Shown: piece by piece, positions 8,220 through 59,167 of the stretch
How the letters are laid out: each line of letters opens with the position of its first letter
Position numbering within the stretch: position 1 is the first letter of the stretch
Virus genome (UHGV): UHGV-0125199
Reading direction: 5' to 3' (one strand)
Origin: a virus
DNA length: 64,000 nt
Made by a program: the position numbers and the translations under genes
Notes under the pieces: generated by a model
Databases searched by the model: none
Told to the model about the DNA's origin: nothing
Seen by the model: the letters and a program-made list of their open reading frames with translations, nothing else

Positions 8220-10223
8220 CTACATGCCCAACATCTCAATTAATTGTTCTTCATTAATAATCTGAACACCCAGTTCTTTTGCTTTTTTATTTTTACTGCT
8301 ATTGGATTCTATATCGTTATTGATTAAAGCAAATGTGGATTTTGTTACAGAACCTGTTACTTTCCCACCGAATTTTTCAATAGCTTCTTTTACTTCATCA
8401 CGATTTTTGAATTTATATACTTTTCCGGTAACAACAAATGATTTGCCATTCAAAGAATTGTTTGTTTTAGAATTGTCTTCTGATTCAAACGTCATAAGAG
8501 AAGCAAGATAATCTGCAATATTACTCATATCTTCAAACCAAGAATGAATATTGTTATTTAATACATCTCCAAAACCGTCAAGCTGCGTAAAGTCATAATA
8601 ACCAATGCTTGCATCTCTAAACTTGTCCCATGTACCAAAAGCTTTAACCAACTCTTTTGACTGTGATGTTCCAATCCCAGGAATACTTAATGATGCAATA
8701 AATTTATCCAATCTTACGGTTTTACTATTTTCAATTGATGTTCTTAACTTGTCTACTGACTTCTTTCCAAATCCACTCATCGTAGAAAGCCTATCATAAT
8801 ACTGGTCAAGATTGTAGATGTCTGTAATCTCTGCAATCCATCCAAGTTCAATGAGTTTCTTAATTGTTTCTTCTGACAAACCTGAGATATCCATACCTTT
8901 CTTGGAAACAAAATGAGAAACTCTTCCTAGTAGCTTGCCTTTACAATGAGGATTAACACACATTAAAACTTCTGAATCGTTTTCTTTTACAATCCGAGTT
9001 GGTGATTCGCAGACAGGACACTGTGATGGAATCCGGATATAAGCTGATTCTCTATTTTTTGCAGATAAGTTTTCTTTTACTTGTGGGATAATTTGATTTG
9101 CTTTATATACAGTAATTGTATCTCCAATTTGTAAATCTAATTTAGTAAGAATACTTACATTGTGAAGGCTGGCTCTTTCCACCATAGTCCCATCAATTTC
9201 TACAGGATCGAAAATTGCTACCGGTGTTAATGAACCAATCTTACCCATTGACCATTCAATATTCTTCAATACCGTTTCGGCTTCTTCATCGTAAAATTTA
9301 AATGCAATAGAATGTTTAGGATGATGACCTGTCATTCCAAGTGACTCTCCGTATGTAATATCATTGTACGTTGCCACTAAGCCATCAATCGGGAAGCTCT
9401 TTTCCTTTGCACGTTTTCGTAATTGTTCTACCACAATATTAATAAATTCAGCATTGCAATTTCCACGAATAGGTAAAAATGGAACTGTATCAAATCCCAA
9501 ATTTGAAGCATACTGCAATCTATTGATAAAACTACTTGACGCAATATCTGTTGGCACTTTCCACGCAATAAATTTAATATGGCGCTGTGCTGCAATTTTA
9601 CTGTCTAATTGTCGTACAGATCCAGAAGCTAAATTTCTTGGATTCTTATATTTTTTGTCTTCTGGTAAAAACTCGTTGATTTTATTAAAATCGTCATATG
9701 TAATAATCGCCTCTCCTTCGATTTCAAAATGACCTTTATAATCAATCGATAACGGAATATTTTCAAACACTTTTGCATTATGTGTAATCAATTCACCAAT
9801 CTCTCCATCTCCGCGTGTTTCTCCTTGAACCAATTCGCCGTTTTCATACGTTAAAAGACATGTCAATCCATCCATTTTCAGACTTAAAATACAGTCTTTA
9901 TCTCCAGCAAATTTTACCAAATCATCTACAGATTTTGTTTTATCTAATGACAACATCGGATGAGAGTGCTCTACTTTTTCTAATTCAGATTTCACCTCGT
10001 ATCCAACGGTTTGTGTTGGCGAATTCGTGTACACGACACCAGTTTCATTTTCAAGTTCTGATAATTCATCGAATAATCTATCGTATTCTGCATCAGAAAC
10101 ATCAGATCTTGCTTCATTATAATAGACATCCCGATATTCATTTAGCTGCTTTACAAGCTCTTGAATTCTTTTAACCTTATACATCAAATCACTCCTTTGC
10201 ATTTTTTCTTCGTTCATAATCAT
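8220..10223 (-). CDS. ligA: NAD-dependent DNA ligase
   Basis: Adenylation motif 'KMDGL', Zn finger 'CPVCESPTRIV..CVNPHCKGK', HhH and C-terminal BRCT; 667 aa. Confidence 0.9.
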   Translation of the reverse strand: MIMNEEKMQRSDLMYKVKRIQELVKQLNEYRDVYYNEARSDVSDAEYDRLFDELSELENETGVVYTNSPTQTVGYEVKSELEKVEHSHPMLSLDKTKSVDDLVKFAGDKDCILSLKMDGLTCLLTYENGELVQGETRGDGEIGELITHNAKVFENIPLSIDYKGHFEIEGEAIITYDDFNKINEFLPEDKKYKNPRNLASGSVRQLDSKIAAQRHIKFIAWKVPTDIASSSFINRLQYASNLGFDTVPFLPIRGNCNAEFINIVVEQLRKRAKEKSFPIDGLVATYNDITYGESLGMTGHHPKHSIAFKFYDEEAETVLKNIEWSMGKIGSLTPVAIFDPVEIDGTMVERASLHNVSILTKLDLQIGDTITVYKANQIIPQVKENLSAKNRESAYIRIPSQCPVCESPTRIVKENDSEVLMCVNPHCKGKLLGRVSHFVSKKGMDISGLSEETIKKLIELGWIAEITDIYNLDQYYDRLSTMSGFGKKSVDKLRTSIENSKTVRLDKFIASLSIPGIGTSQSKELVKAFGTWDKFRDASIGYYDFTQLDGFGDVLNNNIHSWFEDMSNIADYLASLMTFESEDNSKTNNSLNGKSFVVTGKVYKFKNRDEVKEAIEKFGGKVTGSVTKSTFALINNDIESNSSKNKKAKELGVQIINEEQLIEMLGM

Positions 10224-26221: not shown

Positions 26222-27613
26222 TTACATTCTCCTTTCAATTGCTACTTCTAATAATTTTTCTTTTTTATTAGGGCATTCTTCATCAATTACTAATCGTAAT
26301 AATTCATTTAGTGTATTGCCTAATTCTTTGTTTTCTTTATAACCAATACTCATTAAATCGTTGCCATTGACAGCTAAATCTTTAAGTGTAAAACATGTTT
26401 CTTCTCGTAGAACTTCTTCAAGAATTTGTTTAATATTATTAACTTTGTTAATCCTATACTGCTCATAAGATTCTTTCTGCCCTAAAATATCTGCTTTCCT
26501 AACTTCCAATAGTCTTCTAAACTGTTCTACTCCAATCTTATTGATCCATCTTCTCACATATTTTTTACCAACCTCAAAGGTTGCATCATGGTAATACACC
26601 AATTCAACCACATTATTTCTTGTCTCATTGTCAAATTTGAGACGTTTCATAATATTGTCTGTAATGTCTGCACTAACTTTTCCATGTCCTTTAAAGTGTC
26701 TAATACCGTCTTCGCCATCTTGAAATGAATGAGGTTTTCCAATATCATGAAAGAAAACCGCCAATCTAACAGCCAAATTATCGGATTTACAATGTTCAAT
26801 TGAATGTACTGTATGACTGTAAACATCATAATCGTGATATGGGTTATTCTGTTGGAATTCAAACATATCTTTTAATTCCGGTATAAACAATGCAAACACA
26901 TCTTTATATAAAACCATTTCTACACAGAAATCTCTTGATGCGGCGATTTTGCAAAACTCACTATTTATTCTCTCAATCGAAATATTCTTCAAATTTTTGT
27001 ATTGTTTATTGATTTCATAACTTGTTTCCGGGGTCATCACAAATTCAAGTTGAGAAGCAAAACGAATTGCTCTCAAGATCCTTAAAGCATCTTCTCCAAA
27101 TCTATCTTTTGCAGAACCTACACATTGAATTTTTTTATATTCAATATCTTCTAATCCCCCAAATGGATCAATTAATCCTTCGTCATCATTATATGCCATA
27201 GCATTTATCGTGAAATCCCGTCTCTTTAAATCTTCAACTAAATTACTTGTAAAAGTTACTGAGTCAGGTCTACGACTGTCAGAATAGTTTCCATCAATAC
27301 GAAATGTTGTTAATTCATATGGCTCTCCATTAACCACAACAGTTATAGTTCCATGTTGTAAGCCAGTTTCAATTACTTTTTTATCTTTGAAAATCTCTAA
27401 CATTTCGCTTGGTGTTGCAGATGTACAAATATCCCAATCGTGAATTGATCTACCTATAATACTATCTCTTACACAGCCACCTACTACATAAGCGGAATGT
27501 CCGTGATTTTGAAGTGTATTAATCAACTCATTTGCGTTAGACGGGATGTTTATTTTCAATGGAATATTACATTCTTTACAGAAACGACCTTTCAGTTTTC
27601 CAGAAATTTCCAT
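26222..27613 (-). CDS. cca: tRNA nucleotidyltransferase (CCA-adding enzyme) with HD domain
   Basis: 'VGGCVRDSIIGRSIHDWDI' Pol-beta NTase head and 'FFHDIGKP' HD motif. Confidence 0.85.
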   Translation of the reverse strand: MEISGKLKGRFCKECNIPLKINIPSNANELINTLQNHGHSAYVVGGCVRDSIIGRSIHDWDICTSATPSEMLEIFKDKKVIETGLQHGTITVVVNGEPYELTTFRIDGNYSDSRRPDSVTFTSNLVEDLKRRDFTINAMAYNDDEGLIDPFGGLEDIEYKKIQCVGSAKDRFGEDALRILRAIRFASQLEFVMTPETSYEINKQYKNLKNISIERINSEFCKIAASRDFCVEMVLYKDVFALFIPELKDMFEFQQNNPYHDYDVYSHTVHSIEHCKSDNLAVRLAVFFHDIGKPHSFQDGEDGIRHFKGHGKVSADITDNIMKRLKFDNETRNNVVELVYYHDATFEVGKKYVRRWINKIGVEQFRRLLEVRKADILGQKESYEQYRINKVNNIKQILEEVLREETCFTLKDLAVNGNDLMSIGYKENKELGNTLNELLRLVIDEECPNKKEKLLEVAIERRM

Positions 27614-37230: not shown

Positions 37231-38535
37231 TTACATTGCTTCCTCCATCAGTTCTTCAGCCTCTTCCATATCCGGAACATCTGAAGTATCTTTAATAATT
37301 GATTCAATTACCTTAAACTCAAACACTTTGTCCTTATAAGCTGTAAATGATTCTCTATTGTCAATACGTACAACCACACCTTCAGCAATGTGCGTTCTTC
37401 CAATTTCGTCTGCCGGCATACCAGATAAATATTTATTCACTCTTTCCATTAGATCTTCTTTTGTTGTATAAATAAATTTTTCTAATTCTGGAACATATTT
37501 TACACCAAGTTTATCACACCAAATTTTAACCACTTCCCAAGGAACTTCCATTACTGTTCCATCACCGGTTGTCATAGTCATACGATAAACATACATCTCA
37601 GATTCTCCTGGCTGACAACCATAAGAAAATGTTGTCTCTTTCCCAAACTTCTTTGTAAACTCTTTATCTTTGACTTTTGAATTTGATGCAGAACCCATAA
37701 TTGGTGTAGTCTCATTTACATATCCTACAATTTCGTAAAACACTTCACATCCTTCAGGTAATTTATCCTTTAATAAATCATGATATTTTTTTCTGAATGC
37801 ATTATCAGAATAATATCCATCTGTGCTATTCAAATCTTTAATTACAACTCTTCTACTTCCAGACACAACAGAAATTTCTTTTGTCTGTTTCTGTTTCATA
37901 TGTAATAATTCTCTCAATTTATTGTTCTTCTTTGTGATTTTTAATGTCTTAGCAGTACGAGCAGAAGTTCCATGAAGCTTACGTGTAATATAGATCGTAT
38001 CGCCAGGCTTAAAAGAATTTAAATTATATGCAAGCTGCGCAGTATCTTTATGTTCTTCAAAAAATGGATAGGAAATATTTTCTTTATACTTCTCTTTCTT
38101 TTTATTAGAGTTAATATTACTCCTTTTATTTCCTCTTGGAATATACTTTTTACAAATCTCATGTCCTCCAAGAACTGTAATTTGATCTCCATCTTTCAGT
38201 TTATTAATATCAGTATATTTCGAAAGTGTATCAATTGGTAAAATCAGTCCTTCAGATTTTTCACCTCTTAATCTGATTGCGGTTACATTTCTCTTATTTG
38301 GATCCATATAACCACCAACGTTATTACCGTTTTCATCCTTTGCTCTCACAAGTTTGTTGTCATTTGCATACTCTTCAGAAAGCTGTCCATCAGACGGAAA
38401 GAATACAACCCTCTGTCCATCTTTATAACTCAAATCCACAATTACATTCTGTCCGAATACCTCTACACACTGTAAACGGTCAGCATTGCTATGTTTTCTT
38501 AATCCTTTAAGTGTTGTAATATATCCACAATACAT
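37231..38535 (-). CDS. RNA ligase (Rnl2/Rnl5-like KxHG nucleotidyltransferase) with N-terminal tRNA-binding OB-like domain
   Basis: N-terminal 'RKHSNADRLQCVEVFGQ' resembles Trbp111/CsaA tRNA-binding OB. 'ITRKLHGTSAR' matches RNA ligase motif I KxHG[TS]. Confidence 0.55.
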   Translation of the reverse strand: MYCGYITTLKGLRKHSNADRLQCVEVFGQNVIVDLSYKDGQRVVFFPSDGQLSEEYANDNKLVRAKDENGNNVGGYMDPNKRNVTAIRLRGEKSEGLILPIDTLSKYTDINKLKDGDQITVLGGHEICKKYIPRGNKRSNINSNKKKEKYKENISYPFFEEHKDTAQLAYNLNSFKPGDTIYITRKLHGTSARTAKTLKITKKNNKLRELLHMKQKQTKEISVVSGSRRVVIKDLNSTDGYYSDNAFRKKYHDLLKDKLPEGCEVFYEIVGYVNETTPIMGSASNSKVKDKEFTKKFGKETTFSYGCQPGESEMYVYRMTMTTGDGTVMEVPWEVVKIWCDKLGVKYVPELEKFIYTTKEDLMERVNKYLSGMPADEIGRTHIAEGVVVRIDNRESFTAYKDKVFEFKVIESIIKDTSDVPDMEEAEELMEEAM

Positions 38536-48972: not shown

Positions 48973-49725
48973 TCAACTTTTATCACTCTCGTGTTTAAAA
49001 CTAAACGACGGCATCATTTGCAATTTAAACAAATTCTTTTCGTGCATCTGGTCAATTTTCTTCTTTAATTGTTTATCATCAATTAGACCTGTTCTGATAT
49101 ATTTATCGAGAACATCATATGTAAATCCCAAGTTATCTTCATCTGTTTTATCACAAAGACCATCGGATGGAATTTTCTCAATGAACTCTTTCGGAAGTCC
49201 TAATGCATATCCGACTTCCTTAACTTCCGTAACAGTCAGATTAGACAATGGACTGAAATCACCAACACTATCTCCCCACCTTGTACTATATCCAATCCAA
49301 TCTTCAGATAAATTACATGTATTCGCAACTCTTCCATTTACAGTCTGAGACACAGCATATAATGTAGCCATTCTAATTCGCGCCGGCAGATTGATAGAAG
49401 ACTGTCTGCTCCAGTGATCGTCCAATTCAGACTTCACTTCATGTTTAATATCTCTTACTGCATTGAAAATATTCACCTCAATATTTTCAATTCCAAGATG
49501 ATCAACCACCTTCTTTGCAACATCAATATCTTTTTGTTTACCGTTTGGCATTAGGACTCCAAGCACTCTTTCTTTTCCTAGAGCTTCAACGCAGAGTGCA
49601 GCAACAATCGTCGAATCCTTCCCTCCTGAAATACCAACAACTGCTTTACAACCACTTCCGTTCTCTTTAAAGAAGTTCTGGATCCATTCAATAATTTCAG
49701 TTTTAATTTCATTTGCATTAAACAT
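48973..49725 (-). CDS. nadE: NH3-dependent NAD+ synthetase
   Basis: PP-loop 'VVGISGGKDSTIV'; 250 aa. Confidence 0.85.
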   Translation of the reverse strand: MFNANEIKTEIIEWIQNFFKENGSGCKAVVGISGGKDSTIVAALCVEALGKERVLGVLMPNGKQKDIDVAKKVVDHLGIENIEVNIFNAVRDIKHEVKSELDDHWSRQSSINLPARIRMATLYAVSQTVNGRVANTCNLSEDWIGYSTRWGDSVGDFSPLSNLTVTEVKEVGYALGLPKEFIEKIPSDGLCDKTDEDNLGFTYDVLDKYIRTGLIDDKQLKKKIDQMHEKNLFKLQMMPSFSFKHESDKS

Positions 49726-51215
49726 TAAAATTCTCCTCCATGTAGTCTATCTCTAATTTCTTTTAACGATTGTTCTTTTAATAATTCTCCATCTTTAAAG
49801 ACTGTAATTAACATATTTCCACGTTTTTCATAATCAGTAGCCTGTTTCCATGTAAGCTCATCCTCGTAATAAATACTTCCATCATATCGTGTATATACTC
49901 TGCAGCATCCTTTCTGTGATTTCTTAAAACCACCGTCCTTAGGATTTTTAAAAATTGGAGTAGCTTTTCCATCAATCTCACAATATGTTGCTTTAATACA
50001 AGAACTAAAAGTGTCTCTTGTAAATGGTTTTAATACTCCGTCTTCTTCGATGCACTGAAATGAAAACGACCCAACTCCTAATGCTACATTTGAACACGCA
50101 AATCCATTTTTCATAAGAATTCTGTAAATTTCTTCACATCTCTGTACTGTAATTGAGTCACCGTAAATTGCTTTTACATGTGGATCTAACACTTTATACC
50201 CCTTGCTATTAACTGTCCCACCAAATTCTTCCCATAATTTAAATACAGTTTTTGTTACAACTTCTACACAATCTCCAGAATCTCCACGCATCAACATGCA
50301 TCCGTTATGATTCATGATTTCTGTTTTTAATTGAGGAAGAATATTATCGATGATATTCCAATAATCATAAGAGTCAAGAACTGCTGAAAAACTTGTGTTT
50401 GGATAGATTTCAGTAAGTAATCTTCTTAATAATGTAATCTCGTCTCCATCTACCGCATAATTACTGCACATTACAGAATGTTCTGTGCTAGGACTTCCAT
50501 ATGCAACAGGTTCTTTTGTACAATCACAAAAATAATTCTTTTCAAGATAAGGAATAGTTGGAACGGTTGCTGTATTCAAAAATGATAAACACCACCCAGC
50601 GCCTGCTTTTACCGCTGATTCCAAACACTCTTCTCCCCGGAAGTCAAAGGCACCAAGAGCTTTTGATCTTGGAATATAGTCATCACAAGTTAGACCATAA
50701 TAGTGATTAACGATGCTACGATAGGTCATTCCTACTGTTGCTGCTAACATTGGATGCCACATTTCTGCCGAGATAAGACTTTCTAAACTCTGAGGTAACC
50801 ATGCAAAATCTTTATGTGTATTTGTAATACCAAACATAGGCACATGCATTGGAACAATTGTACCTTCTGGCAATGAAACAATCTCAATTGGCAAATATCC
50901 CAATTTATGTAGACTTTCAATCTTGTCAATTTTATACGCATCCTTACCAAGTGATGCATCCATAATTCTTTTATATTCATAAATAATTTCTTCAAAAGGT
51001 TTGTCAAAAAATTCTTCATTGAAATAATCAATCAGATACGTTTTAATAAACCCCTGTAATCCAAACATTACTACTTTATCCCATCGTTTTACACGACTCA
51101 TTCTAGGAGTAAAATAGGAAACTGATTTTGTAATATTTTCAGGTAGCATTTCTGCATGAACCGCTTTATAAAAGTCAATTAATAACATTGGATTTGTCTT
51201 ATTCGTCATATTCAA
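49725..51215 (-). CDS. Nicotinamide/nicotinate phosphoribosyltransferase (type II PRTase; NAMPT/NadV or PncB family)
   Basis: 496 aa, size and composition typical of NAMPT/PncB. Between prs and nadE. Family-level call only. Confidence 0.65.
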   Translation of the reverse strand: MNMTNKTNPMLLIDFYKAVHAEMLPENITKSVSYFTPRMSRVKRWDKVVMFGLQGFIKTYLIDYFNEEFFDKPFEEIIYEYKRIMDASLGKDAYKIDKIESLHKLGYLPIEIVSLPEGTIVPMHVPMFGITNTHKDFAWLPQSLESLISAEMWHPMLAATVGMTYRSIVNHYYGLTCDDYIPRSKALGAFDFRGEECLESAVKAGAGWCLSFLNTATVPTIPYLEKNYFCDCTKEPVAYGSPSTEHSVMCSNYAVDGDEITLLRRLLTEIYPNTSFSAVLDSYDYWNIIDNILPQLKTEIMNHNGCMLMRGDSGDCVEVVTKTVFKLWEEFGGTVNSKGYKVLDPHVKAIYGDSITVQRCEEIYRILMKNGFACSNVALGVGSFSFQCIEEDGVLKPFTRDTFSSCIKATYCEIDGKATPIFKNPKDGGFKKSQKGCCRVYTRYDGSIYYEDELTWKQATDYEKRGNMLITVFKDGELLKEQSLKEIRDRLHGGEF

Positions 51216-52029
51216 ATACCTCTACTTTCTCATGTTCTTTTGTAAAAATACTATTTGTCGTGAACACTCTGTCAATCAATCCACTACTCAATACTTCTCC
51301 TTCGAGGATTGTATTTTCACAATGAGATACATATAGATAAATCTCCTTTGCTCCCAGTTCCTTTAACTTAATAGCTGAATGATAAAATGTTCCGCCACGA
51401 CTTGAAATATCATCTACAATTAAAATTTTTCTTCCTTTAATCAGATTTGTCATGCCTGAAACATCTAGTCCTTTAATCTCCCCTGTTTCCCAATCGCGCT
51501 TTTTAATACCAAAAGCATAAGGAAGATCAAACATTGTAGAATAACGTTTCATAGCTCCTTCGTCCGGATAGAACATTGTAAGATTATTTGTGCCACCAAT
51601 GTATTCACTTTCAATCGCTTTCCACACATATTTGTCTGGATATTTAATTAAAACTCTATCAATAAGAGCTTCGCTTACAGATGAATGTGGATCTAATACT
51701 GTTACAGAATCAAAATTCAGCCAATTAATAACTTCTGCAAAATACTTTAATGTAAATACATCTTCTGTTGTTTTAACACGATCTTGACGACTGTTTGGAA
51801 TATATGGCATATTCAAGTACAAATTTGTAATACCATGAGAATTAAGGTGTTTGACAATATAAATCAATGTCACCAATTCTTCATTATCTTCAAACAACCA
51901 GGTAATAGTTGCTTCTCTGTAATTTTTAAAATCATAAGAAACATCCTCTTTAAGCAAGAGAGTTCCATCTGGAAATTTCTTTGTATTTACTACTTCTCCA
52001 TTAATTTTAATCATAAGACTTTTCTCCAA
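51199..52029 (-). CDS. prs: Ribose-phosphate pyrophosphokinase (PRPP synthetase)
   Basis: PRPP-binding 'ILIVDDISSRGGTF' motif. Confidence 0.85.
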   Translation of the reverse strand: MEKSLMIKINGEVVNTKKFPDGTLLLKEDVSYDFKNYREATITWLFEDNEELVTLIYIVKHLNSHGITNLYLNMPYIPNSRQDRVKTTEDVFTLKYFAEVINWLNFDSVTVLDPHSSVSEALIDRVLIKYPDKYVWKAIESEYIGGTNNLTMFYPDEGAMKRYSTMFDLPYAFGIKKRDWETGEIKGLDVSGMTNLIKGRKILIVDDISSRGGTFYHSAIKLKELGAKEIYLYVSHCENTILEGEVLSSGLIDRVFTTNSIFTKEHEKVEVFEYDE

Positions 52030-52579
52030 TCACATTAATTTGACAAGATTTCATCACTTCTAACGCAGCTCTATGCTTTTCAGGAGTGACACCAGCGCAG
52101 CACGACGCATCGACTGTAATTTCCATTTCTGGCACCCATGCTTTAATTAATAGAGCATTCGACACTACACAAATATCAGTACATACACCAACAAGTTCAA
52201 CGCTATCATAATCATTACTAGCAAAACCGCCATGGATACATTCTGCAAGGTAATTACTTCCAAATCTATTTTTATTAATTACGTGTTTTGCGTAAGATTT
52301 TAATTCGTCTACAATTTCCCATCCATTTGTTCCAATAACACAATGCTCTACAGGCAATTTTTTACCTTCCTGAGTATCTAAATAACCATCCAAATGTGTG
52401 TCTTTTGTGAAGAAAACTACATCACCGTTATTGTAATATTCTTCAATTTTTTTCTTTACATCCGGAACAATTGCAACTGCTTCTTTTGTTCCCAAATTTC
52501 CACTCACAAAATCGTTTTGCATATCTACTACAACTAAAACCTTCATATTCCCTATTCTCCTTCTACCAATTCCAAGCAT
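52007..52579 (-). CDS. pncA: Nicotinamidase / isochorismatase-family hydrolase
   Basis: 'VVVDMQNDF' and catalytic-Cys 'VGVCTDICV' motifs. Confidence 0.7.
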   Translation of the reverse strand: MLGIGRRRIGNMKVLVVVDMQNDFVSGNLGTKEAVAIVPDVKKKIEEYYNNGDVVFFTKDTHLDGYLDTQEGKKLPVEHCVIGTNGWEIVDELKSYAKHVINKNRFGSNYLAECIHGGFASNDYDSVELVGVCTDICVVSNALLIKAWVPEMEITVDASCCAGVTPEKHRAALEVMKSCQINVIGEKSYD

Positions 52580-56024: not shown

Positions 56025-56270
56025 TTTATTTACCTCTTTTGATATTAATCACATCGGTATTTACAATCTTATATCACATGCAGCTCACAAACATTTTCAA
56101 ATAGCGACAAATGAAATAGTTTGTTGAATCAACGTTTACAGTTTCTAAATATTCGATTTACTGTAGGTGATATTTGATTATAAACACCGATGAAAATCAT
56201 ATGCAGAACTTTATGTATCTTATTTTATTGGAGGTATGAAACATGTATAGAAATTTATTCCGCATATGAA

Positions 56271-56341
56271 TTGTAGATAAAGGATTTGAACCTTTTCTTA
56301 TGCGCCACACTACATCGTGCTACCATTTACACTAATCTACA
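56271..56341 (-). other. tRNA-like element (good acceptor, D and T arms; no canonical anticodon stem), possibly a tRNA pseudogene
   Basis: Minus-strand TGTAGAT..GTGT-AAATGGTA-GCAC..AAAGG-TTCAAAT-CCTTT-ATCTACA-A. The 21-nt anticodon region cannot form a 5-bp stem. Confidence 0.25.
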
Positions 56342-56465
56342 ACTTTTAGGATATTATTATGAAAACTAGATCATTACTATTTAAGGAGAGCAATATTACT
56401 ATGAGAACCAAAAAAACAATAAAAAATATTATTTAAAATCCAATACAAAATAGTAATAACCTAAA

Positions 56466-56538
56466 TGGATCATTCGGGACTCGAACCCGAAACCGATCGG
56501 TTATGAGCCGATTGCGCTCACCATTGCGCCAATGATCC
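56466..56538 (-). tRNA. tRNA-Met(CAU) (or fMet/Ile2-lysidine); CCA not encoded
   Basis: Minus-strand cloverleaf: acceptor GGATCAT/ATGATCC, D GCGC/GCGC, anticodon stem ATCGG/CCGAT with loop CTCATAA, T stem TCGGG-TTCGAGT-CCCGA, discriminator A followed by TTT. Confidence 0.8.
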
Positions 56539-57762: not shown

Positions 57763-58062
57763 TTAAGCTATTTGCTTCTTATATTCTTTCTCTTTAGCCA
57801 TGTTCAAAATATTAATTGCAGCATTAATGTCTCTATCATGAATCGCTCCACATTCAGGACAAATCCAGCCTCTTATTTTTGTATCTTTTGTATTTACGTT
57901 CACAAAACCACATTTACTGCATGTTTGTGTTGATTTTTTATATTGTCCAATTGCAACAACCGGTACACCATATTCTTCACCTTTTCTTTTTAACAAAGTA
58001 AGAATTTCTCCCATCGCTGCATCAGATAAATTATCATTTCTCACTCTTGTTTTTCTTGACAT
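57763..58062 (-). CDS. tnpB: TnpB/Cas12-like RuvC nuclease, C-terminal part (Zn finger plus RuvC-III), separated from the N-terminal part by a frameshift
   Basis: 'CSKCG...[19 protein letters not shown]' is the canonical TnpB C-terminus. Overlaps upstream ORF by 29 nt at gtcaagAAAAAcaag. Confidence 0.75.
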   Translation of the reverse strand: MSRKTRVRNDNLSDAAMGEILTLLKRKGEEYGVPVVAIGQYKKSTQTCSKCGFVNVNTKDTKIRGWICPECGAIHDRDINAAINILNMAKEKEYKKQIA

Positions 58063-59167
58063 ACATATCTTTAACCGACAAAGTTTCTATTCCAATAAAG
58101 TCTGATCTTTTTATAACTTCTAACACCATATTCTCCATATGATATTTTCTTTGTCGTGTTACCTTTCTTTCTAATTTTGCTTTTTTAAATTTTGTTTCTA
58201 TGTATCTTTTAGAAGGCTTTAATTCAACATTTTCTTTTCTTAATTCACTTAATCTTTTCCTAAACTCAATATTGCTATACCCTTGTCTTCTGGATAATTG
58301 CCTATTTAACATCTCACGATGTTGACGAACACTTCCGTCTCTACCATTTTTGAATCTAGGATTATCATATTTTGTTCCGTCTGATAAAGTCATCAAAGTT
58401 GAAATTCCAACGTCAATTCCTATTTCTCTTTTCTCTTCTTCTACTTTCACAATCCTATAAATATCTTTCATACATAGCTGTAAAAAGTAATCGCCACAAT
58501 TATCTTTTTTTACAGTTGTTAATATTTGTTGTTTCTTATGTAAATTCACATATTCTTCAAAATTCATCATGCATGATGAATCAAACCAGACATTTTTTAG
58601 ATATCCTTTAATCCCCCTAATCTTTACCTTTCCGATTTTAGCTAAATTAAAATATGCTACATTTTTATTCTCCTCATTAAAGCTCATTTTTCTCAGAAAT
58701 TCTTGATATGTATAACTTGTTCTCGGATGTTTCTTTGAATAATATGGAGGTTTACTGTTCTCAATCGGTCTTTTAACTCCCTTTCCATTTGTTTTCTTAT
58801 TAGAATTTTCTCCACTCACTTGAGCATCCAATCGCTTCGACAAATCACACAAGAAAACTCCATTCTCACCAGACAAAGCACCCGCTGGAATCAATTTAAT
58901 GTCTTCTCTCCTACTTCTTAACACATCCAAATACTGTTTCTTTGCAATAGACTTTACATCCGGAAAATGAACAGTTTGTCCTGCATTCTTTTGGTCTGGT
59001 CTTTCAATTGTATTAACTTTATTTTCAAACATATCGTAAACAGCCATATTACACGCCTTATGTAAAGCCAAAATAATTCTATCTATTAATTCACTCTGCT
59101 CTTTATTCGGATACATTCTAAAATTGAAAGTATATACCGGTATTTTTATAACTTTTTCAACTAGCAT
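58034..59167 (-). CDS. tnpB: TnpB/Cas12-like RuvC nuclease, N-terminal part (WED/REC-like region, RuvC-I, RuvC-II)
   Basis: N-terminus 'YTFNFRMYPNKEQSELIDRIILALHKACNMAVYDMF' (TnpB 'rlyPt.eQ...fg..r.vyN'). RuvC-I 'IGIDVGIS', RuvC-II 'FIGIETLSVKDM'. AAGGAGG RBS and TTGACA upstream. Confidence 0.75.
   Translation of the reverse strand: MLVEKVIKIPVYTFNFRMYPNKEQSELIDRIILALHKACNMAVYDMFENKVNTIERPDQKNAGQTVHFPDVKSIAKKQYLDVLRSRREDIKLIPAGALSGENGVFLCDLSKRLDAQVSGENSNKKTNGKGVKRPIENSKPPYYSKKHPRTSYTYQEFLRKMSFNEENKNVAYFNLAKIGKVKIRGIKGYLKNVWFDSSCMMNFEEYVNLHKKQQILTTVKKDNCGDYFLQLCMKDIYRIVKVEEEKREIGIDVGISTLMTLSDGTKYDNPRFKNGRDGSVRQHREMLNRQLSRRQGYSNIEFRKRLSELRKENVELKPSKRYIETKFKKAKLERKVTRQRKYHMENMVLEVIKRSDFIGIETLSVKDMYVKKNKSEK

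Follow-up and report, generated by a model that had tools for sequence, protein, structure and literature searches.

In the 64,000-nucleotide stretch of the virus genome UHGV-0125199 analysed here (the window), four consecutive, overlapping minus-strand genes at positions 48973-52579 were assigned to a PncA-like nicotinamidase, an Adps-like ADP-ribose pyrophosphokinase, a transferase of the Namat family and the NAD synthetase NadE. We consider it probable (about 0.58) that this operon derives from NARP1, a phage pathway for NAD+ reconstitution, and that with its four enzymes it routes the pyridine half of NAD+ via nicotinate. NARP1 consists of Adps, which makes ADP-ribose pyrophosphate (ADPR-PP), and Namat, which joins the pyridine to it (Osterman et al. 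2024).

In the proposed pathway PncA would deamidate nicotinamide to nicotinate, and Adps would move pyrophosphate from ATP onto ADP-ribose (ADPR), giving ADPR-PP. The variant Namat would then join nicotinate and ADPR-PP to nicotinic acid adenine dinucleotide (NaAD) and PPi, with neither a mononucleotide nor an adenylyltransferase involved, and NadE would convert NaAD to NAD+ using ATP and NH3. The operon would thus rebuild NAD+ from ADP-ribose and nicotinamide, the fragments left by NAD+-cleaving effectors, by way of nicotinic acid. The logic of the operon also favours nicotinate as the Namat substrate: a Namat dependent on nicotinamide would lose its substrate to the co-transcribed nicotinamidase. 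With nicotinate in this role, the four enzymes would form a closed path from both products of an NADase, calling on no host enzyme. That a Namat with Ala or Ser at position 215 (the Ala/Ser-215 type) is a nicotinate:ADPR-PP transferase making NaAD in one step, and that its operon represents a further phage route of NAD+ reconstitution, the fourth in kind, which bypasses both nicotinic acid mononucleotide (NaMN) and the otherwise universal NaMN adenylyltransferase and is widespread among the large phages that infect gut Clostridia, we would put at even odds. The substrates of the third and fourth steps are predicted from sequence, and the counter-defence role is suggested by analogy with canonical NARP1. 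An earlier note on this DNA, made from the letters and the open reading frames (ORFs), had proposed an NAD+ reconstitution module of undescribed composition, and this idea gained support as a NARP1 core plus PncA and NadE. The Preiss-Handler-like nicotinate route proposed there was probably right in spirit as regards nicotinate, but the path would run via ADPR-PP and not via phosphoribosyl pyrophosphate (PRPP).

The Adps-Namat core

The second gene of the cluster lies at 51199..52014 (-) (ORF 52029..51199, 276 aa; probable start ATG 52014). Its product was 43% identical to the Adps of SPbetaL1, 36% to that of FADO and 29% to that of ICP1, as against 26% to B. subtilis Prs; the SPbetaL1 and ICP1 enzymes, both validated, are 31% identical to each other. 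The residues F18, R87, H121, D161, K185, D212 and D213 of ICP1 Adps, described in PMC13586617, are all kept. The PP loop reads DDISSRGGTF, comparable to DDLSSFGGTF in SPbetaL1 and distinct from the Prs form DDIIDTAGT, and the ribose-5-phosphate loop of Prs, DD(I/M)xDT(G/A)GT, was absent. With TIGR01251 (ribP_PPkin) the protein scored 99.2 bits, under the cutoff of 113, as did the two biochemically validated Adps (106 and 98 bits), while phrog_619 matched it with 232 bits. Its length of 271 to 276 aa fits the lack of C-terminal alpha11-alpha12 that marks Adps; from ATG 52014 it begins with MIKING, the same as the SPbetaL1 and FADO proteins. The gene directly adjoins the Namat-like gene with an 11-nt overlap, and 97% of the Adps-clade genes adjoin Namat, the clade being almost phage-specific. 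On its sequence the protein thus belongs with the phage Adps, the ADP-ribose pyrophosphokinases, and the name PRPP synthetase, under which it had been noted earlier, gained no support. A single profile, phrog_12872 (547 positions), was matched by the Adps-like protein over its positions 52-223 and by the Namat-like protein over 378-535, which implies that Adps-Namat fusion proteins exist in phages.

The transferase gene occupies 49725..51209 (-) (ORF 51215..49725, 496 aa; probable start ATG 51209, which fits the 494 aa of Namat-like homologues). Its best PDB matches were 9W5W and 9W5X, the structures of SPbetaL1 Namat (PMC12774641), with 399 bits and E = 2e-118, while true Nampt structures reached about 157 to 167 bits. 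The Pfam domains found were NAPRTase (PF04095) and NAMPT_N (PF18127), not NAPRTase_N. A PncB-type nicotinate phosphoribosyltransferase (NAPRT) was taken to be a protein passing the models TIGR01513, TIGR01514 or PRK09243, and the transferase passed none of them; with the PncB model NF009131 it scored 15.1 bits, whereas gp277 of Bacillus phage G gave 553 to 653 bits on PncB models. The model NF006629 matched with 434.5 bits, but its name, 'nicotinate phosphoribosyltransferase', is uninformative, because validated Namat and KVP40-like NadV match it equally.

In neighbour-joining trees rooted on the phage G PncB, the Adps-linked transferases with Asp and with Ala/Ser at position 215 formed one superclade, with KVP40-like NadV as the outgroup. 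This superclade was separated from the KVP40-like NadV in 100/100 bootstraps with the signature columns removed; the outgroups were drawn from annotated phage records, the first homologue search having given only relatives more than 94% identical. The transferase can be placed by these comparisons with the phage Namat, and neither with PncB nor with true Nampt. True Nampt has a nicotinamide site of the Asp219 type, a Gly-rich equivalent of the adenine clamp (SCH), GSGGGLLQ..TRD, and an NMN adenylyltransferase as partner, and KVP40-like NadV reads GGGLLQQSDRD; the window protein has Ala at the Asp position, and its SCH starts with an aromatic residue. It had been noted as a NAMPT/PncB-type phosphoribosyltransferase, a choice between two families of which neither holds it. 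With Adps and Namat both in place, the core of the cluster is, as far as family membership tells, NARP1. Namat-like proteins among representatives of 50%-identity clusters were often far longer than 500 aa (800 to 1114 aa), matching in 2 to 4 stretches, and one of them (P0176) has an intein-like insertion starting within the adenine-clamp motif (GSF|CVTPDTKIL...).

The other two genes flank this core. The PncA-like gene lies at 52007..52546 (-) (ORF 52579..52007, 190 aa; probable start ATG 52546 after GGAG), and NadE at 48973..49725 (-) (ORF 49725..48973, 250 aa; ATG 49725), the likely starts of the first three genes being slightly internal to the mechanical ORFs. From the probable starts, neighbouring genes overlap by 8 nt (PncA/Adps), 11 nt (Adps/Namat) and 1 nt (Namat/NadE), and the terminator scan found no terminator-like site within the cluster. 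Because of these overlaps and the lack of internal terminator-like sites, the four genes read as a single translationally coupled operon. The promoter scan was uninformative, since promoter-like sites were fewer than in shuffled sequence. The four genes lie on the minus strand exactly at the coordinates given in the earlier note, and the motifs quoted there (VVVDMQNDF, VDDISSRGGT and SGGKDS, the last as GISGGKDS) were all found in the ORFs.

The pyridine site and its linkage to PncA and NadE

The residues of the transferase were compared with those of SPbetaL1 Namat by HMMER alignment to 9W5W and by MAFFT, and the numbering of 9W5W is used below. All ribose, phosphate and catalytic residues of Namat were retained: D13, Y15, R40, F189, R192, R306, D308, G360, D361 and the catalytic H245 are kept, and so are G390, S391, F392, T398, R399 and D400. 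Only 2 of the 7 nicotinamide-pocket residues of 9W5X were changed, D215 to Ala and A242 to Ser, and G213, which neighbours the pocket, is Asn. The first change lies in the segment SFLNTATVP (50559..50585, -), where Ala216 of the window protein corresponds to Asp215 of SPbetaL1 and Asn214 to Gly213; the second lies in PSTEHS (50475..50492, -), where Ala242 of the pocket has become Ser243 and the catalytic His245 is matched by His246.

In SPbetaL1 Namat Asp215 hydrogen-bonds nicotinamide, D215A cuts NAD+ formation from nicotinamide 8.1-fold, and Ala242 is counted among the nicotinamide-pocket residues of 9W5X (PMC12774641). The hydrogen bond from Asp215 to the amide serves as a criterion of Namat, and at this position the window transferase has Ala, with Ser at 242. 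The equivalent residue of human NAMPT, Asp219, sets substrate specificity: the activity is lost in D219A, and the substrate affinity is switched in D219S. This switch reportedly goes toward nicotinic acid. In the true PncB of phage G (gp277) the column aligned with Asp215 holds Ser.

The genomic context of this substitution was followed in 390 loci with flanks of up to 8 kb, which gave 298 distinct transferase ORFs; column 215 and the neighbouring genes were scored, and contexts were contrasted only where the flank measured at least 4 kb. In case of the Asp type, PncA or NadE occurred within 8 kb in 0/106 loci, while PncA, NadE and Adps were found together with the Ala/Ser type in 129/132. The true exceptions were two (L016 and L054), the remainder lying at contig ends. 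The columns separating the two groups were 215, 242 and 213, plus 184 to 187 beside F189. The triplet 213-215-242 was also read in 150 proteins that each represent a 50%-identity cluster, taken from a set of 1.8 billion: 96 had G-D-A, about 50 had x-[A/S]-S, and a handful had others. The sequence types within the Ala/Ser group include the window type, with an insertion in the adenine clamp, the Phass-1 type and the L145 type, which has Ser. Adps was present with 147 of the 149 insertion-type transferases. Two gene orders occurred, PncA-Adps-Namat-NadE (133 loci) and Adps-Namat-NadE-PncA (7 loci), and the four-gene linkage persisted to about 35 to 45% identity, across both orders and with variable inserted genes.

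In one locus (L460, 6001-8598 (+), Logan SRR21150992) a single ORF of 865 aa is an Ala/Ser-type Namat fused to NadE. PncA (199 aa) stands directly upstream of it and a 510-aa Pribosyltran protein nearby. This fusion argues that the two enzymes catalyse consecutive steps. An apparent PncA-Namat chimera (P0208) looked like a deletion or an assembly artefact and was not used.

The first and last enzymes of the proposed path fall into the families already named for them in the earlier note. The PncA-like protein matched the isochorismatase family PF00857 (E = 4.5e-27) and phrog_19305 (140 bits), and its best solved relatives include the P. horikoshii pyrazinamidase/nicotinamidase 1ILW/1IM5 and the S. 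pneumoniae nicotinamidase 3O90. The triad of Asp (VVVDMQNDF), Lys (VINK) and Cys (CTDICV) is kept in 130 distinct phage homologues, as is the metal site, D-x-H (KDTH) and His (VEHC), and these residues line up with those of 1ILW/1IM5. The NCBIfam PncA equivalog gave 24.6 against a cutoff of 174, and since this curated cutoff is missed, nicotinamide is to be regarded as the presumptive substrate. In case of NadE the family assignment was clear (PF02540, E = 5.6e-55; TIGR00552 with 184.9 bits, its cutoff being 63.65; P-loop GISGGKDS). The protein, 250 aa long, is of the NH3-dependent, single-domain type without glutaminase, and its best solved relative was the P. horikoshii NAD synthetase 2E18 (139 bits). 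The M. jannaschii enzyme of the archaeal subfamily of 2E18 is NaAD-specific and has no NMN synthetase activity (NMN, nicotinamide mononucleotide; PMC3376133).

A search for an adenylyltransferase had been suggested in the earlier note, where this step was held to be missing. No NadD homologue, and no (H/T)xGH or ISSTxxR motif of an NMN adenylyltransferase (NMNAT), was found in the window or in any flank, the NadM and NadR types being covered by motif only; nor was an adenylyltransferase linked to the operon in any of about 140 loci. This would not be a gap in the proposed pathway, because ADP-ribose already carries the AMP half.

Alternative readings and the evidence that bears on them

Several observations weigh against the pathway as proposed. 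The adenine clamp (the SCH motif) of the window transferase, GSFSFQC-IEEDGVLKP-FTRD at 50013..50072 (-), is remodelled: the Namat motif is GSxΦxΦxΦTRD (PMC12774641), realised as GSFTYQYNTRD in SPbetaL1, and in the window protein position 3 is still aromatic, while Cys has taken the place of the aromatic residue at position 7 and 9 inserted residues come after it. Because the motif is not intact, the use of ADPR-PP rests on the kept F392 and R40 and on the context of Adps and of Adpp, a macro-domain ADPR-1''-phosphate phosphatase to which genes with related operons are similar. The monophyly of the Ala/Ser group reached 52/100 bootstraps with the signature columns removed, thus the group may stem from very few evolutionary events, and a single origin is not claimed. 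The 129-to-0 contrast is accordingly a strict and long-kept association and not 129 independent events, because the lineages share ancestry. As for NadE, the second-best solved relative was the F. tularensis NMN synthetase 3FIU (102 bits). At three positions which we take to be discriminating, NadE has G, Q and K against Y, Q and R in Francisella, a mixed result that was dropped as evidence, and the preference of NadE between NaAD and NaMN cannot be read from sequence.

The operon might be a canonical NARP1 with a pair of helpers, PncA and NadE boosting the Preiss-Handler flux of the host through its PncB and NadD, and the Ala/Ser changes being neutral or compensated. Clostridia usually have PncB, NadD and NadE, and the hosts of the relatives are gut Clostridia. 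In addition, the family placement of Adps and Namat is solid, and NARP1 operons are known to gain accessory genes such as Adpp and RyDEP. Nevertheless, we hold this explanation to be unlikely. It leaves unexplained both why PncA and NadE are linked to 129/132 of the Ala/Ser loci and 0/106 of the Asp loci and why precisely the nicotinamide-contacting residues change; D215A cuts the nicotinamide-dependent activity 8-fold, a co-expressed nicotinamidase would compete for the substrate of Namat, and the Namat-NadE fusion favours consecutive steps.

The same chemistry could also serve a metabolic purpose, keeping NAD+ high for the NAD+-consuming enzymes of the phage itself in gut anaerobes. The window encodes an NAD-dependent DNA ligase of 667 aa (8220-10223 (-); phrog_3869, 653 bits), and because this enzyme consumes NAD+ in replication, the phage has a direct stake in the NAD+ pool; some relatives carry the NAD+-using KptA/Tpt1 within the cluster. 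That such a purpose stands in place of counter-defence seems improbable to a similar degree, since the ADPR-based chemistry of Adps and Namat was shown to counter NADase defences, the clade is almost phage-specific, and bulk ADPR comes for the most part from cleaved NAD+. Both purposes could also be served at once.

A PRPP-based, Preiss-Handler-like route, in which the Prs-like protein makes PRPP, the transferase makes NaMN (or NMN), host NadD adds the adenylyl group and NadE finishes, appears quite improbable. SPbetaL1 Namat does keep about half of the PRPP-dependent activity of human Nampt in vitro (PMC12774641), the insertion disrupts the clamp of the window protein, and phage G shows that phages can hold the full PncA-PncB-NadD-NadE set. 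However, the Prs-like protein groups with validated Adps, has the Adps PP loop and misses the ribP_PPkin cutoff, and the sister Ala/Ser proteins keep a perfect adenine clamp (Phass-1 GAYTYQYVTRD; L145, with Ser, GSYSFQYNTRD). Adpp-like macro genes, which yield ADPR, stand in about half of the Ala/Ser operons, and a linked adenylyltransferase in none of the roughly 140 loci.

Least probable is a route through an NMN synthetase of the Francisella type, NadE amidating NaMN made by the transferase to NMN and a host NMN adenylyltransferase completing NAD+: the shortness of NadE (250 aa) and its match to 3FIU speak for it, but 2E18 is the better match and represents a subfamily whose M. jannaschii enzyme is NaAD-specific, the route needs both PRPP chemistry and an NMNAT, neither of which is supported, and the Francisella case accompanies the replacement of NadD by NadM, which is not expected in Clostridia.

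Relation to known systems and genomic surroundings

Compared with canonical NARP1, the operon has the same adjacent and co-oriented, phage-borne Adps and Namat homologues, which keep the catalytic His, the residues for ribose and phosphate, and the clamp in part. It differs in having Ala for Asp215, Ser for Ala242 and the 9-residue SCH insertion; among the sampled loci the Ala/Ser pair nearly always, and the canonical NARP1 never, has PncA and NadE beside it, and the first product is predicted to be NaAD here, while NARP1 yields NAD+. NARP1-AP (bioRxiv 10.64898/2026.01.28.702374) is likewise a NARP1 operon extended by enzymes that supply the core pair or complete its work, Adpp, its ADPR-1''-phosphate phosphatase, extending NARP1 against aRES. 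About half of the Ala/Ser-type relatives (75/155 loci) have an Adpp-like macro-domain gene in or near the operon. The window holds no macro-domain homologue, and its additions concern the pyridine (PncA) and the product (NadE), unlike NARP1-AP, where the addition concerns the ADPR half.

The classical Preiss-Handler pathway (PncA-PncB-NadD-NadE) shares its first enzyme, PncA, its last, NadE, and NaAD as the penultimate compound with the operon, but here there is neither a PncB-type NAPRT nor NadD, and ADPR pyrophosphorylation and one transfer would replace both middle steps. Complete classical sets have been described in jumbo phages, and Bacillus phage G (NC_023719.1, 200123-207372) has an isochorismatase (gp275), a PncB-type NAPRT (gp277), NadD (gp281) and NadE (gp283); its neighbourhood also holds a Nudix hydrolase (gp273) and KptA (gp280). 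NARP2 (Nampt and NMN adenylyltransferase, KVP40 type) and NARP3 (PnuC and NadR) also restore NAD+ in phage infection, but the present operon has no NMNAT, NadR or PnuC, and its transferase groups with Namat, not with KVP40-like NadV. Judged by its proteins, the operon is NARP1-like on the ADPR side, departs from Namat at the nicotinamide site, and borrows the first and the last enzymes of Preiss-Handler. The literature searched holds no account joining NARP1 with a nicotinamidase, accounts beyond it being possible, and the NARP literature searched does not mention nicotinate, PncA or NadE in the context of NARP1.

If the proposed pathway is true, the formation of NaAD directly from nicotinate and ADPR-PP would be a reaction new to NAD biochemistry, and the operon a new branch of the NAD+ conflict between phages and bacteria, found chiefly among phages whose hosts are Lachnospiraceae and Ruminococcus of the human and animal gut. 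A sequence rule would follow, by which Namat with Asp at 215 and Ala at 242 and Namat with Ala or Ser at 215 and Ser at 242 are two functional types; it would apply to thousands of proteins now uniformly annotated as "nicotinamide/nicotinate phosphoribosyltransferase". Phage "ribose-phosphate pyrophosphokinase" annotations beside such genes are better read as Adps. The reasons for a detour through nicotinate are a matter of speculation: nicotinate may be abundant in the gut, a host nicotinamidase may compete for nicotinamide, the ATP-driven step of NadE may make the route irreversible, and NaAD may form a pool resistant to NADases.

Other genes inserted in related operons include NADAR (29 loci; e.g. 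L312 12182-12700) and the RNA 2'-phosphotransferase KptA/Tpt1 (14 loci; e.g. L320 9903-10481), both tied to ADP-ribose chemistry, and a 251-aa protein with a DxDxT-like motif (37 loci; e.g. L077 9476-10234); an example of the macro-domain gene is L001 7549-8175. Phage Phass-1 (L078, OQ749652.1, 96860-101298), a gut phage of the 'code 15 clade', has the same four genes amid a large tRNA array; its annotation calls NadE hypothetical, the transferase NAMPT and Adps Prs. Near-identical proteins abounded in gut metagenomes, where their contigs measured about 160 kb, and binning put the relatives with Lachnospiraceae, Ruminococcus and other gut Clostridia. When the nucleotide sequence of the cluster was compared by megablast with 50,697 phage records, there was no match.

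The window itself is the replication module of a large phage. Its GC content is 30 to 36%, and its genes, all on one strand, include a DNA polymerase, helicases, the NAD-dependent DNA ligase, a tRNA nucleotidyltransferase and an RNA ligase. A Pfam scan of the ten ORFs flanking the cluster found nothing related to NAD, a YopX protein excepted. The tRNA nucleotidyltransferase (26222-27613 (-)) and the RNA ligase (37231-38535 (-)) may serve in tRNA repair. At 58034-59167 (-) lies a transposase-like gene (phrog_506). A tRNA-Met gene (56270-56342 (-)) stands beside an odd ARAGORN call with a two-base undetermined 'anticodon' (56466-56538 (-)).

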